Source: a virus (lineage: Duplodnaviria > Heunggongvirae > Uroviricota > Caudoviricetes). Taken from it: a DNA stretch of 10,290 nucleotides. Below the pieces are notes generated by a model that worked only from the letters and a program-made list of their open reading frames with translations, had not been told where the DNA came from and did not search any database. Both the position numbers and the translations under genes were made by a program. The stretch is taken from IMG/VR virus record IMGVR_UViG_2711768000_000004; one strand, 5' to 3'. Each line of letters starts with the position of its first letter. The stretch's first letter is position 1. Below, piece after piece: positions 4,642-8,474 of the stretch.

Positions 4642-5135
4642 TGCTGCCCCCACAAACAGACTTCACGCTCAATCTCACGACGGGTCATCAGCCCTTTCCA
4701 TTGCTTACCGCCAGCATATGTCCAGCGACGTAGCTGGTCACATGCGCCTTTGATATCGCCCTGGTTTATTTTGCGAAGAAGCGTCGATGTTCTGAAATTG
4801 CCAGCGCCCACGTTGTAAACGAACGAGTAAAGAGCGCCGCGCGTTGTTTCCGGTATATCGACTTTGATGTACGGGTTAATTTGTCTGGCGACAGTGGCAA
4901 GGTCTTTATTCAGGAGGGCTTTGCATTCTGCTTCGGTATACGTTTTACCGAGCATGATGTCTTTTCCGGTGTGTCCGTGACATACAGTCCATACACCAAT
5001 GATATCTTTGTATGGTATGTAGCTGACACCTTCCAGACCATCGTTACCACCTGGGCCAGTGATTAACACAGATGCTATAGCAACAGCCCCACCACCAATA
5101 GCAGCTGCAACAGCCTTGCGTAATGATGGCGACAT
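4638..5135 (-). CDS. SAR endolysin (lysozyme, phage 21 R / DLP12 RrrD-like)
   Basis: 165 aa. N-terminal signal-anchor-release segment [20 protein letters not shown], then a lysozyme core with E-D-T catalytic residues ([11 protein letters not shown]...[10 protein letters not shown]). Near-identical to my recollection of RrrD / R21. ATG at 5135-5133 with GAGGTG upstream. Confidence 0.9.
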
Positions 5136-5157
5136 TATTCACCTCTCGCAGCCTTAC
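5135..5157 (-). pseudogene. 3'-terminal remnant (last 7 codons plus stop) of a pinholin gene (S21/EssD-like), truncated by IS2
   Basis: Minus strand reads (C)GT AAG GCT GCG AGA GGT GAA TAA, i.e. K-A-A-R-G-E-stop. This matches the C-terminus ...REDRRKAARGE of S21/EssD as I recall it, with the usual TAATG overlap onto the endolysin start. The rest of the gene is replaced by IS2 starting at 5158. Confidence 0.55.
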
Positions 5158-5677
5158 TAGACTGGCCCCCTGAATCTCCAGACAACCAGTATCACTTAAA
5201 TAAGTGATAGTCTTAATACTAGTTTTTAGACTAGTCATTGGAGTACAGATGATTGATGTCTTAGGGCCGGAGAAACGCAGACGGCGTACCACACAGGAAA
5301 AGATCGCAATTGTTCAGCAGAGCTTTGAACCGGGGATGACGGTCTCCCTCGTTGCCCGGCAACATGGTGTATACGGAGAAGCACATCCGTATCATCAGTG
5401 TGACGACTGCGGCGGCCATCCATCCAGTCATCGGTTCGTCTGAGAATGACGTGCAACTGCGCACGCGACACCCGGAGACAACGGCTGACTAAGCTTACTC
5501 CCCATCCCCGGGCAATAAGGGCGCGTGCGCTATCCACTTTTTTGCCCGTCCATATTCAACGGCTTCTTTGAGGAGTTCATTTTCCATCGTTTTCTTGCCG
5601 AGCAGGCGCTGGAGTTCTTTAATCTGCTTCATGGCGGCAGCAAGTTCAGAGGCAGGAACAACCTGTTCTCCGGCGGC
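5158..5677 (+). mobile_element. IS2 (IS3 family) fragment with aberrant structure
   Basis: 5158 onward matches the IS2 left inverted repeat (TAGACTGGCCCCCTGAATCTCCAGACAACCA...) and the orfA start (ATG 5249, [41 protein letters not shown]). After about 5371 the sequence becomes the reverse complement of internal IS2: the minus strand encodes the InsC C-terminus and InsD N-terminus ([59 protein letters not shown]). The fragment ends at the N run. Confidence 0.8.
5249..5371 (+). pseudogene. IS2 orfA (InsC) N-terminal fragment, 41 codons, then sequence diverges
   Basis: In-frame match to the IS2 InsC N-terminus. Reading frame leaves IS2 orfA after ...ARQHGV at the junction near 5361-5371. Confidence 0.7.
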
Positions 5678-5712
5678 NNNNNNNNNNNNNNNNNNNNNNN
5701 NNNNNNNNNNNN
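5678..5712. other. Unresolved sequence (35 N)
   Basis: Run of n characters; assembly gap or masking. Confidence 1.
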
Positions 5713-5774
5713 CGATTTTGATATCGGGCCATTAAAAAAGATCGCGTAGCATTCTTAATTCATGAGGAACTTTA

Positions 5775-5839
5775 CCCGCCAGCAATCTGAGTAGCGAAAG
5801 CTGTTCATCCCCAATGTTTTTGCTGGCGGGTCCTTTTTT
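5775..5839 (+). terminator. Plus-strand terminator-like stem-loop with T tract
   Basis: ACCCGCCAGCAA (5775-5786) pairs with TTGCTGGCGGGT (5820-5831) around a 33-nt loop, followed by CCTTTTTT. Orientation is opposite to the phage genes. A plus-strand reading frame ends ...DFDIGPLKKIA-stop at 5749 just upstream. Confidence 0.35.
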
Positions 5840-6278
5840 CTACGGTCCTCCTCCCCGGAGGGGGGCATTTCATTATTTTTCTAATCGTTACTGGTGAGAA
5901 GGCGGAAGAAAAAGCCAGTTCTTCGCCCCTAAATAACAGCATGATTCCAGTCCATGCAAAATCTGATTTCCAGCTCACACATACCGAGCACTGTACAAAA
6001 AACCGCCAGCCAAGGCAGTTAAGAGTGTGTTCCCGGGGTTTGCTTAGAATATTTTGTAAGTTGTCCGAAGAGATATTTACAACACCAGAATGATGAATCA
6101 TCAGTCCCCTGCCAGAGGTTCACTACGTAACCTGACCGACAATGCACCATTCTGGTGCTGAAAAAAGAGCACTGGAACTGCAACAAAACAACATCACAGA
6201 ACAGGAGATGGTAAGGAGTCAGACATTCCCACACAATATTGTGTCAGTGCAAATAACAACCTTCGTCTCAAATCTCGC

Positions 6279-6353
<75 letters not shown>

Positions 6354-6356
6354 ATA

Positions 6357-6432
<76 letters not shown>

Positions 6433-6434
6433 GC

Positions 6435-6511
6435 TGGCCCACCACCGAGGACTCGAACCTCGCACCGTCAACTTAGAAGGTTGATGCTCTATCCGGATGA
6501 GCTAGTGGTGG
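6435..6511 (-). tRNA. tRNA-Arg (anticodon UCU), argN-like
   Basis: CCACCACTAGCTCATCCGGATAGAGCATCAACCTTCTAAGTTGACGGTGCGAGGTTCGAGTCCTCGGTGGTGGGCCA. Acceptor stem CCACCAC/GTGGTGG, anticodon stem TCAAC/GTTGA with loop CTTCTAA, T arm CGAGG-TTCGAGT-CCTCG, encoded CCA. Confidence 0.85.
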
Positions 6512-6512
6512 T

Positions 6513-6589
6513 TGGTGGCCCTTGCTGGACTTGAACCAGCGACCTGGCGATTATGAGTCGCTCGCTCTGACCAACTGAGCTAAAGGGCC
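6513..6589 (-). tRNA. tRNA with CAU anticodon (Ile2/lysidine type, ileX/ileZ-like; Met not excluded)
   Basis: GGCCCTTTAGCTCAGTTGGTCAGAGCGAGCGACTCATAATCGCCAGGTCGCTGGTTCAAGTCCAGCAAGGGCCACCA. Anticodon loop CTCATAA. Very similar to my recollection of E. coli ileX. Encoded CCA; a 27-43 A-C mispair in the anticodon stem. Confidence 0.8.
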
Positions 6590-6600
6590 GGAGGCAGAAT

Positions 6601-6629
6601 AATAACCATATGTCATCACATCTGCAAAC
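6601..6629 (-). promoter_or_regulatory. Candidate sigma70 promoter for the tRNA cluster
   Basis: Minus strand TTGCAG (6629-6624), 17 bp, TATTAT (6606-6601). The first tRNA 5' end (6589) lies about 12 nt downstream of the -10. Confidence 0.4.
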
Positions 6630-6677
6630 TCATCTGACCACCAGCACGTTTAACGTCCTGTGCCGTTTTTCAGGTAT

Positions 6678-6703
6678 AAAAAAACCCGCTCATCGGCGGG
6701 TTT
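6678..6703 (-). terminator. Rho-independent terminator (minus strand) upstream of the tRNA cluster
   Basis: Minus strand AAACCCGC-cgatga-GCGGGTTT followed by TTTTTTTA. Stem is 5-8 bp, loop 6 nt, T tract at 6684-6678. Confidence 0.55.
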
Positions 6704-7252: not shown

Positions 7253-7389
7253 GTCCTTTCGAATATTTTGATTTACCCCTTTTGAGAGGGTGACCGGGCG
7301 CTCAAAACCGTCGAAAGTCGGCGGGCGTATTTCCATTGCTGGTATTGTATTAGCCGCACACCCGGTCATAAACCAAGAATTCTGGACAC

Positions 7390-7417
7390 AAAAAAACCAC
7401 ATGGCTATCGGGTGTGG
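7390..7417 (-). terminator. Terminator/attenuator-like hairpin in the leader of the ORF6N gene
   Basis: Minus strand CCACA-cccgatagcca-TGTGG followed by TTTTTTT (7396-7390). Lies about 30 nt downstream of the second promoter. Confidence 0.45.
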
Positions 7418-7452
7418 ATACCGCTTTCGAGGTGTTTTGAGCACCGCGGGGA

Positions 7453-7481
7453 AATGTAAACTGCAAACCTGAAACTGTCAA
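7453..7481 (-). promoter_or_regulatory. Near-consensus sigma70 promoter (second module)
   Basis: Minus strand TTGACA (7481-7476), 17 bp, TACATT (7458-7453). Confidence 0.5.
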
Positions 7482-7607
7482 CACCGTCAGGTTCCAATCA
7501 TCGGGTGGTGAGACGCACAGGGTTGGAACTACCGGGAAACCGACCGGCGAGCTTTTCAGCTCCCCCATGCGCCCCACCATAATTCAGATGTGCGCGTGCA
7601 TACGACA

Positions 7608-7630
7608 ATAAAAAACACGCTCGCGGCGTG
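7608..7630 (-). terminator. Rho-independent terminator, candidate tR'
   Basis: Minus strand ACACGC-cgcga-GCGTGT followed by TTTTTATT. About 75 nt downstream of the promoter that abuts Q. Confidence 0.6.
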
Positions 7631-7692
7631 TGTCTGTCGCGGTCTCTATCCGGGGTTCCAATCCCGACGCCAGATTTTGCTGGCGCGTGAGG

Positions 7693-7722
7693 AATATAGC
7701 CCCGGACAATGTGTCTGGTCAA
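7693..7722 (-). promoter_or_regulatory. Candidate late promoter PR' with adjoining Q-utilisation region
   Basis: Minus strand TTGACC (7722-7717) begins 5 nt after the Q stop codon; -10 TATATT (7698-7693) at an 18-bp spacing. Initial transcribed region forms the hairpin CGCCAG-caaaat-CTGGCG. Position matches PR' in lambdoid phages. Confidence 0.55.
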
Positions 7723-7726
7723 GCAC

Positions 7727-8113
7727 CTACATAATTCGTTCTACGTATCTGTCCATCTCCAGCCGGATATCAAGCATCATCAACATGCCATCAATAACCC
7801 CTTCCGCTTTCTGCAGGCGCTTGCCAATACAGGTATCCGAACACCCATGTTTCCGTGCCAGACTCATAAAAGTCATTCCACCTACGTAATAATCCACCAG
7901 CAAATCGTGCAAATCCTGATTTTTCTTGTTCAACCGGGCCATACAGCCACAAATTATCATTGCATCATCATCAGAACACTGAGGGCGTGATTTCACTTTC
8001 GACGGAATTAACCCTTTAAAACCAGCAGCGATCGACGCCCAGGATACATCTTCATGAGTGTTTGCAGCCCAAGCCCCCCACCGTTCCATAACCTGCTGAA
8101 TATCACGCGCCAT
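7727..8113 (-). CDS. Q: Late-gene antiterminator Q (QuuD / DLP12-type)
   Basis: [61 protein letters not shown]... closely matches E. coli QuuD as I recall it. ATG at 8113-8111 with AGGTGA upstream; overlaps the rusA 3' end. Confidence 0.9.
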
Positions 8114-8474
8114 CGTTATCACCTGTGATTTCATAAATCTTCACGCCCAGTCGCCCACCAGGAACGAGCTGACCGCGCACAATATTGATTTCATCAAACT
8201 GCTCGTCGTCTATGAGTAGTCCGGCATGCGTCAGCGCATCCAGTGGTGCTTTCAGGATATTGTCCAGGTCACGACGGCGCTTATCCGGTGGCTCTGCAAT
8301 AATCTTTATCGCCAGCCTTCCGGACAGGTTTAATTTCAGCCGCTGCTGGCGAACAATTAGCGTCACATCACGGCGATAACGCTCACCAACTTTTGATACA
8401 AAATATGTGCTGCCACGACGTCGCCAGTAAGTATTCACCGTCGGCGGATAAGGTAAAATAAACTCATGGCGCAT
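8103..8474 (-). CDS. rusA: Holliday-junction resolvase RusA
   Basis: 123 aa, [21 protein letters not shown]...[24 protein letters not shown], typical RusA. Start ATG (8474-8472) overlaps the upstream gene stop (ATGA). Confidence 0.95.

Follow-up and report, generated by a model that had tools for sequence, protein, structure and literature searches.

A non-coding spacer between the tRNA cluster and the holin gene of a lambdoid prophage probably carries two convergent RNA units

What occupies the 566 bp that separate the tRNA cluster from the lysis cassette in this prophage, where an insertion sequence and an assembly gap adjoin a stretch with no recognisable gene? Between the antiterminator gene Q and the holin gene, lambdoid prophages carry Shiga toxin and other conversion genes, and the same slot is already known for small RNAs (sRNAs) that rewire host regulation, including AsxR, AgvB and the Pas RNAs. 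The window, by which we mean the whole 10,290-nt stretch of DNA analysed, covers such a late region, with the 566 bp at 5713-6278 and the following surroundings:

Whole window, minus strand: late-region genes of a lambdoid prophage, all on this strand, beginning with a DnaB-type helicase, RusA and antiterminator Q
7727-8134, minus strand: antiterminator Q, after which come an isrK/C4-type RNA region, an ORF6N-domain gene and four tRNAs
6589-6279, minus strand: the four tRNAs (Met, Arg, Thr, Gly)
6279-6353, minus strand: tRNA-Gly
5713-6278: the 566-bp spacer, beyond which lie the lysozyme, Rz, HNH and terminase genes (minus strand)
5713-5728: 16 orphan bases, cgattttgatatcggg, between the N gap and the start of homology
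5679-5712: run of N, the first real base being 5713
5158-5678: internally rearranged piece of IS2, running from the left inverted repeat at 5158
5137-5157: holin remnant, the last seven codons (...KAARGE-stop), overlapping the lysozyme start and identified by comparison with the holin of Escherichia coli CFSAN029787

The IS2 annotation of the damaged stretch (5136-5712) was obtained computationally, and the sequence at 5158 is what we take to be the end of the element. IS2 insertion and rearrangement, together with the assembly gap, removed the holin gene from the window along with the -35 box of module A, the left-hand unit described below. None of the complete E. coli genomes extends the match to the left of about 5729, the 5728/5729 junction has no exact match in IMG/VR or in the JGI metagenomes, and the orphan 16-mer (5713-5728) has no full-length match in the more than 200 loci fetched.

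To the right of this damage the sequence is well represented elsewhere. Positions 5729-6278 recur at 99.3-99.8% identity in nine complete E. coli genomes, including CFSAN029787 (L001; NZ_CP011416.1, about 18.1-18.9 kb), in which they lie within the spacer between tRNA-Gly and a class II holin gene, with no annotation inside it. In these relatives about 130 further bases lead from 5729 to the holin start codon. Prophage contigs with the element core number 46 in IMG/VR, and a search of species representatives found it in Shigella flexneri and E. coli only. The same adjacency to the holin is seen in most element-bearing prophage contigs with enough flank (over 30 prophage contigs), the holin MYQMEKISTG... 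being the immediate neighbour in most such copies, and in about ten copies an IS is situated exactly between holin and element. Holin adjacency in intact relatives is established. On balance, we judge it probable that the 566 bp are a native non-coding spacer of the lambdoid late region, a 'moron' slot holding two convergent RNA units, here called module A (plus strand) and module B (minus strand). What appears as a gene-less gap beside an IS and an assembly gap would then be native, conserved non-coding sequence and not debris.

Module A lies next to the damaged side and comprises the following features:

5729-5979, plus strand: module A as a whole, antisense to the late operon
5710-5715, plus strand: expected position of the -35 hexamer TTGACA, replaced in the window by the gap and unrelated bases
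5733-5738, plus strand: -10-like hexamer TAAAAA, located by alignment
5745-5841, plus strand: predicted sRNA of about 95 nt, from the fold
5745-5773, plus strand: unpaired 5' region
5774-5785 with 5820-5831, plus strand: 12-bp outer stem, followed by UCCUUUUUUCU to about 5841
5788-5795 with 5800-5807, plus strand: inner hairpin with a GAAA loop
5834-5839, plus strand: U-tract
5845-5880, plus strand: second hairpin, GUCCUCCUCCCCGGAGGGGGGC, with a U-rich tail, poorly conserved in other lineages and possibly a back-up terminator
5926-5979, strand unassigned: second conserved block, about 90% identical between lineages

We regard module A as a probable sRNA gene with a putative promoter and a predicted terminator of its own; its transcription, termination and processing, and any targets, are inferred. 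In every other copy with enough flank, TTGACA stands at an invariant 17-nt spacing from TAAAAA while the spacer sequence itself varies. The -10 hexamer lacks the usual final T, for which reason the consensus promoter scanner did not list it. The plus-strand terminator-like structure reported in the preliminary description is real (-31.6 kcal/mol, z = -4.2, equalled by 0 of 200 shuffles), and the GC-rich hairpin reported with it is present at 5845-5866, with a U-rich stretch after it. Upstream of the terminator there is space only for the promoter-like TTGACA-17-TAAAAA and about 30 unpaired nucleotides.

The terminator segment is the most conserved part of module A (93% against 72-82% in the flanks), and its stem is invariant across lineages except for one G-U and one A-C change; the widespread ColV lineage has an A-C mismatch in the stem. 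A covariance model of the predicted RNA (R1) scores 125-130 bits on five of five lineages, and only 2 of the 17 variable columns fall within the 40 paired columns (P = 0.008). Over its full length the sRNA is not more conserved than its surroundings, the window type and that of the intact lambdoid prophage L008 being about 90% identical by alignment count, compared with 88.5% across the 662 bp beside it. The set consists of only seven near-identical variants; of the 20 pairs, none has changed on both sides and 18 never vary, and covariation is uninformative for module A because of this low diversity. When the 5' region was scanned for trans-targets in an intact relative, nothing but the trivial cis-antisense match was conspicuous, and the scan was without power, since seeds scored as low as -23.5 kcal/mol after shuffling.

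The block at 5926-5979 continues in relatives as ...CTCACATAATAACC, which is possibly a plus-strand promoter of a PapR/AgvB-like sRNA, whereas in the window the homology ends at 5979. In the window type, the tRNA trailer joins module A at this position, inside the apparent -10 box of the next sRNA promoter of L008. Intact relatives also have a late-strand terminator just upstream of the holin, which is absent from the window. Given that both the -35 box and the adjacent holin have been lost, the copy of module A in the window is probably silent.

The distribution of module A is established from complete genomes. A module of about 350 bp containing the 5729-5979 stretch is present in 1431 of 5426 E. 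coli genomes (~26%) at about 85% identity. Copies are situated directly upstream of the holin in intact lambdoid prophages (L008, L009), beside iss and Rz/Rz1 pseudogenes on ColV-type plasmids (L002), and in an IS-flanked remnant or island of CFT073 (L003). Promoter and terminator are intact in decayed prophage remnants with Rz/Rz1 pseudogenes, and E. coli Nissle 1917 is among the strains with an intact copy. No O157:H7 record occurs among 60 evenly spaced entries of the 1512 matches to module A, and the phage GenBank collection contains no match even in distant mode. The module is likewise absent from the IpeX/nmpC (DLP12) and ynfU (Qin) regions of K-12, and a literature search by sequence with module A or its complement returned no match.

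The remainder of the spacer, passed over in the preliminary description, is a separate conserved structured RNA on the opposite strand (5980-6278), with these features:

5980-6278, minus strand: module B, the complete trailer of the phage tRNA cluster, beginning with the base that follows tRNA-Gly and ending where module A joins it
6161-6250, minus strand: domain P1, branched, from an RNAalifold consensus of 26 variants
6250-6245 with 6174-6169, minus strand: closing stem of P1 (GCACUG with CAGUGC), enclosing small hairpins
6168-6161, minus strand: U-run of P1, UCUUUUUU
6080-6160, minus strand: P2, a long hairpin (about 30 pairs; GAAUGGUGCAUU ... AUCAUUCUGGUGUUG), conserved more strongly than the rest of the trailer
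5995-6020, minus strand: second terminator-like hairpin, AACUGCCUUGGCUGGCGGUU, followed by six U, from the terminator scan, converging on module A

P1 is predicted, from the modelled consensus, to be the first intrinsic terminator of the tRNA operon, albeit of an unusual, branched form. The CCGCC/GGCGG stem of the second terminator recurs in relatives with a variable loop and a U run. Covariation in module B is established. The consensus over 26 variants contains 47 pairs, of which 11 are compensatory, and 97.8% of its cells are paired. In helix 1 pairing reaches 98.9%, with one compensatory pair; there are one and three such pairs in helices 2 and 4, and helices 5 and 6, which form P2, contribute 30 pairs (six with compensatory changes) that are 95-99% paired. 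Controls with slid partners reached 31-52% paired and at most four compensatory pairs, a comparison biased in favour of module B because its pairs were derived by RNAalifold and counted on the same alignment. None of 500 shuffles attained the paired fraction, the counts of compensatory pairs or cells, or the covariation score of module B; its count of further pair types is not above the shuffles, 498 of 500 of which reach it.

In the window P2 is predicted to consist of 16 + 10 + 5 pairs, a long, nearly continuous duplex of the size expected of an RNase III processing site (about 20 bp or more). It folds at -42.8 kcal/mol on the minus strand (z = -3.7) as against -25.7 kcal/mol on the plus strand (z = -1.1). 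Only this part of the trailer folds better than shuffles, the 292-nt whole giving z = -1.1. Many of the P2 pairs are G-U and would turn into C-A on the opposite strand; these pairs together with the strand-asymmetric folding imply that the selected structure is an RNA on the strand of the tRNAs and late operon.

The position of module B relative to the tRNAs is also fixed. In 127 of the 130 copies with enough flank, the P2 core lies 129-146 nt downstream of the end of a same-strand tRNA, which in 126 is tRNA-Gly. Homologues of about 70% identity directly follow the last tRNA of the cluster at every locus examined (tRNA-Gly, or tRNA-Glu in one locus), and trailer homologues are situated in prophages with different, unrelated lysis cassettes. 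The distribution of this module, too, is established: it is present in 233 E. coli genomes, 224 of them beyond the nine mentioned above, its core hairpin occurs in at least 120 IMG/VR contigs, and the phage GenBank collection yields two weak matches. Rfam 15 contains no family for module B and gives only spurious matches of microRNA-type hairpins over P2, and a sequence-based literature search with fragments of the module found no match.

Could the spacer nevertheless be the relic of a protein-coding gene? The preliminary description had favoured an antisense cargo gene, with the plus-strand terminator and a frame ending at 5749 as its 3' end and its body lost to the IS2/gap region. Antisense morons are indeed known in the slot, as with nmpC upstream of essD in DLP12, and the window assembly does not supply the sequence left of 5729. 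However, the frame in question (ORF 5525-5749) exists only by reading through the N bases, with 12 X residues, and is therefore an artefact, while in every other copy the terminator is preceded, some 130-250 bp upstream, by a holin, an IS or a prophage remnant, with no gene on the plus strand. Comparison with intact related prophages, set beforehand as the check on this reading, finds the same sequence adjoining the class II holin with no gene between them, and the roughly 130 bp available there leave no room for a lost antisense gene. We therefore reject the cargo-gene reading, which retains almost no credence. A small protein or type I toxin encoded in the region is just as hard to credit. 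The earlier observation that 5713-6278 contains no credible gene is borne out, for no ORF has a Pfam match, including the two longest (5805-6101, 98 aa, and 6019-6234, 71 aa, both minus strand), and none is conserved in frame or length among related copies; this absence of a conserved ORF is established. The ORFs are, as described, short and mutually overlapping (20-98 aa). The candidate frames are a 27-codon frame, a 37-aa frame at 5755-5868 (minus strand), an ORF beginning MHHSGVV... and hypothetical proteins called by PGAP, namely a 63-aa protein over module A in L008 and proteins of 80-87 aa over the trailer in L065 and L067. The 27-codon frame exists, yet it starts at 5814 and not at 5811 as first given, and its ATG is confined to the window type and missing from the other sequence variants, so the type I toxin-like element suggested from it is not supported. 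In the window, L001, ColV and CFT073 types the 63-aa frame is interrupted, and the MHHSGVV... ORF, which starts in the 3' arm of P2, varies from 15 to 150 aa, diverges directly past the stem and has an ATA start in several copies. Neither strand has a conserved ORF, where a type I toxin-antitoxin system would call for a conserved short hydrophobic one overlapped by an antisense RNA. PGAP otherwise leaves both modules unannotated, and the hypothetical proteins with which it covers them are probably spurious. The preliminary description of the region was thus real and its main interpretation wrong, while its secondary suggestion of a small RNA is supported by module A and probably right.

Other readings accept the conserved elements and assign them a different role. 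Module A could represent cis elements of the late region and not a gene, either an insulator against stray antisense transcription coming from the lysis side or a leader structure of the holin mRNA, with its promoter hexamers fortuitous. The imperfect -10 box and the 0 of 20 covarying pairs are compatible with this, as is the predicted nature of its transcript; moreover, the outer stem also forms on the minus strand (-28.3 kcal/mol, z = -3.0), and the first 105 bases upstream of the holin are common to phages without the rest, such as the Stx1d prophage L010. Against it, TTGACA keeps its exact 17-nt spacing despite a varying spacer, the U-tract is on the plus strand only, two G-U pairs of the inner hairpin are mismatches on the minus strand, the module is kept where the holin to be regulated is gone, and the verified sRNAs PasA and PasC have an identical position and orientation. 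We consider the cis-element reading rather unlikely, although it deserves some weight. For module B, the long and nearly perfect inverted repeat of P2 might act as DNA, for example as a protein-binding or recombination site, and in four related loci the match stops after the initial 165 bases of the right half, placing a breakpoint near 6144 within the repeat, though these may be contig ends. Yet about a quarter of P2 pairs are G-U in most sequences, changes from G-C through G-U to A-U preserve pairing of the minus-strand RNA only, the fold energy is strongly strand-asymmetric, and the position is fixed relative to a same-strand tRNA, which makes a role as DNA very unlikely.

Returning to the reading of two convergent RNA units, both modules fit the pattern of known convergent sRNAs at prophage moron sites, and they match no Rfam family or sRNA tested. 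Rfam was scanned at gathering and E-value thresholds, with 5680-6300 taken to E-values of up to 10, and the loci of PasA, PasB and PasC were fetched for comparison with coordinates from Table S6 of PMC8550237. PasA and PasC are Hfq-dependent prophage sRNAs of EPEC E2348/69 (PMC8550237; bioRxiv 10.64898/2026.05.13.724894; Pearl Mizrahi et al. 2021; Zhu, Shabalina and Storz 2026), antisense to and next to the holin in EPEC prophages (PMC8550237). Like module A, they are short (~80-95 nt), reside in lambdoid prophages antisense to the late operon, have their promoter (a putative one in module A) beside a class II holin and end in an intrinsic terminator stem with GCCAGC/GCUGGC. Antisense adjacency to the holin/lysozyme operon is found for module A in L001, L008, L009 and most IMG/VR copies, and for PasA in L005. 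Module A differs in the 44-nt structured loop of its terminator, and expression and Hfq dependence have been shown for PasA and PasC but are predictions for module A. Identity with PasA, PasB or PasC was considered, and no similarity was found by blastn or covariance model: the PasA/PasC loci gave no blastn alignment with module A at word size 7, and model R1 had no match in them (L005, L006) at E-values of up to 10.

Convergent sRNAs at the moron site downstream of PR' have been described previously (Tree et al. 2014, PMC4104026). The window shares the layout of the AsxR/AgvB type, with two facing non-coding units flanked by moron or tRNA genes on one side and by the next conserved gene of the phage on the other, and the 5' part of module A is more variable than its 3' part (84% versus 93%), as in the AsxR/AgvB family. 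The RNAs of that family are anti-sRNAs of 51-60 nt in which some 42 nt at the 3' side are conserved, in contrast to the predicted ~95 nt of module A; AgvB and AsxR (RF02702, RF02703) have no Rfam match in 5680-6300 at E-values of up to 10, and the terminator sequence of module A was not found in the supplement of Tree et al. 2014. In L008, L009 and L010, the role of module B as sense-strand convergent partner upstream of the holin is taken by STnc100/PasD (RF02076), the Rfam model of which scores 64-114 bits in these three loci as a positive control and finds nothing in the window at E-values of up to 10. Module B is tied to the tRNA cluster, while STnc100 is not.

PapR is an Hfq-dependent sRNA of ExPEC encoded in prophage-like DNA (Khandige et al. 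2015, PMC4546395). Module A does not contain the primers by which PapR is delimited (CGGGCTGAAGTCCGG at the start, TCTCCCAGCGCGGGCTTTTTTT at the end), and a PapR-like 3' end is situated just downstream of module A in L008. The order in L008 is holin, late-strand terminator, module A, conserved block, PapR/AgvB-like 3' end, a shared hairpin and STnc100 on the late strand; read in this way, the slot is an sRNA island. The published work on OMV small RNAs and hlyF/iss plasmids annotated by Rfam only.

Module B also resembles RNAs derived from tRNA operons. In E. coli the trailer 3'ETS-leuZ reportedly acts as an sRNA sponge, and, like it, module B adjoins the final tRNA of its operon on the same strand and has a predicted intrinsic terminator with a U-run at its end. 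Module B is phage-borne and far longer (~285 nt as against ~50 nt), with two predicted terminators and a hairpin of some 30 pairs; by analogy, sponge activity of module B is a speculative possibility.

Based on these features, we propose how the two units could operate. Transcription of the tRNAs would start at a promoter-like site at 6628-6599, recognised as a consensus match, and run through all four tRNAs. Since the cluster has this site and a terminator at 6700-6685 on either side of its start, the tRNAs are probably transcribed alone in the lysogen. The transcript would then meet P1, P2 and the second terminator in turn, and in the lysogen the two trailer terminators could prevent constitutive tRNA transcription from running on into the lysis genes. 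In intact relatives another late-strand terminator would act just upstream of the holin, and Q-modified polymerase would read through all of them. P2 is located after the first U-run and would therefore be made only on read-through; during lytic growth its duplex would be a likely processing site for RNase III. Another possibility is that the trailer is set free as a stable tRNA-linked RNA of the 3' external transcribed spacer type. From the holin side, module A would converge on the trailer, transcribed from a sigma-70-like promoter beside the holin as some 30 unpaired nucleotides followed by a strong intrinsic terminator with its U-tract. The lysogen may produce it as a base-pairing sRNA that probably depends on Hfq and possibly acts in trans. 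Its sequence is also perfectly complementary to the late transcript immediately ahead of the holin.

The slot between Q and holin thereby gains two further conserved elements, both absent from Rfam 15. Module B combines solid covariation with a handle on how constitutive tRNA expression is separated from the lysis genes, and module A is a candidate regulator in extraintestinal pathogens, found as it is on ColV plasmids that carry iss and in about 26% of complete E. coli genomes. A bolder proposal, which we put forward only tentatively and hold to be possible, is that both modules are functional regulatory RNAs of uncatalogued kinds, module A a new Pas-like, Hfq-dependent family and module B a tRNA-linked trailer RNA. 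If so, module A would have spread with lambdoid prophages and been kept after their decay on ColV plasmids and ExPEC islands, and its retention in a quarter of sequenced E. coli would imply a target in the host or in virulence. Module B, in turn, would be processed at P2 and then work in trans, as a sponge or an sRNA, or else it would determine how much of the late transcription gets through to the lysis genes.

Terminator-like sites are more frequent around the spacer than expected by chance, the terminator scan listing 5 in 5100-6700 compared with 1.5 +/- 1.1 in shuffles. At one related locus (L069), the trailer is followed by a different plus-strand terminator.

Module A, the candidate antisense sRNA gene that adjoins the holin in relatives, includes a second conserved block. 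In relatives the sequence there is ATGCAA/ATACAG-N18-CATAAT, which may be a plus-strand promoter; the homology of the window type stops within the -10 of that possible promoter. This block and the further elements of the window and compared loci are as follows.

Elements in the window and in related loci
Window 5926-5979 and E. coli STEFF_1 (L008) about 5300-5357: second block of module A, ~90% conserved between lineages
L008 5300-5660, plus strand, downstream of module A: a 3' end with close resemblance to PapR and the EcOnc08 family (...CTTCACGTTTTATTCCTTGCCGCCCGTGCCTCCCAGCGCGGGCTTTTTT)
L002 3774-3895 (ColV plasmid) and L003 3771-3893 (CFT073): STnc490 (Rfam)
L069 1279-1302, plus strand: a different terminator (CACGAGTATTCCTGGATGCTCGTG plus T-run)
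L005 3760-3900 (E2348/69 PP2), minus strand, directly after PasA: another promoter-like TTGACA, with a terminator (ttagccagcg...cgctggcttttttt) that resembles that of PasC
L008 5001-5192, L065 1373-1612 and L067 1423-1683: PGAP hypothetical proteins (e.g. WP_000502162.1) covering module A or the tRNA trailer
Window 5158-5368 forward and 5369-5678 inverted: rearranged IS2 copy
Window 7284-7699, minus strand: isrK, C4 antisense RNA with a1/b1 targets, and sRNA-Xcc1 (Rfam)

The PapR/EcOnc08-like 3' end in L008 converges with STnc100 through a common hairpin, CCCCTCCGGAGAGGGG, and was not called by the Rfam AgvB and AsxR models. The L069 prophage, which carries the longer form of the tRNA trailer, has a plus-strand terminator convergent with the trailer's second terminator, which hints at one more antisense sRNA family in the slot between tRNA and holin. 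The arrangement after PasA suggests that Pas-type genes stand in tandem in the E2348/69 PP2 prophage. The PGAP hypothetical proteins are probably spurious calls on RNA elements, since their frames in L008, L065 and L067 are not conserved in other lineages.

On ColV plasmids and in CFT073, STnc490 takes the position held by the holin in intact prophages, with module A on one side and Rz/Rz1 pseudogenes on the other; thus, the retained fragment is mainly non-coding RNA, with iss, located just past the pseudogenes, added on the plasmid. The module A core occurs twice in the IMG/VR contig L023 (185-206 and 1465-1486), on the same strand and 1280 bp apart.

Only the last seven codons of the holin remain in the window, owing to an IS2 insertion at 5158, and the rearranged IS2 copy is directly followed by an N gap. 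It follows that the prophage probably has a defective lysis cassette, or else that 5136-5712 is mis-assembled. Nine loci from Shigella flexneri, E. coli and contigs of IMG/VR (L012, L014, L026, L029, L032, L036, L040, L042 and L053) carry the same IS, ending ...CATGCTTGACAACTTAATAGGGGCA, at an identical position, where it separates the holin start from CCCCCCGACAGACC of module A. This points to either a hot spot of site-specific insertion or one inherited event.

Just downstream of the late antiterminator gene Q, the isrK, C4 and sRNA-Xcc1 region, flanked by Q and an ORF6N-domain gene, resembles a P1-type immunity/antirepressor control module.
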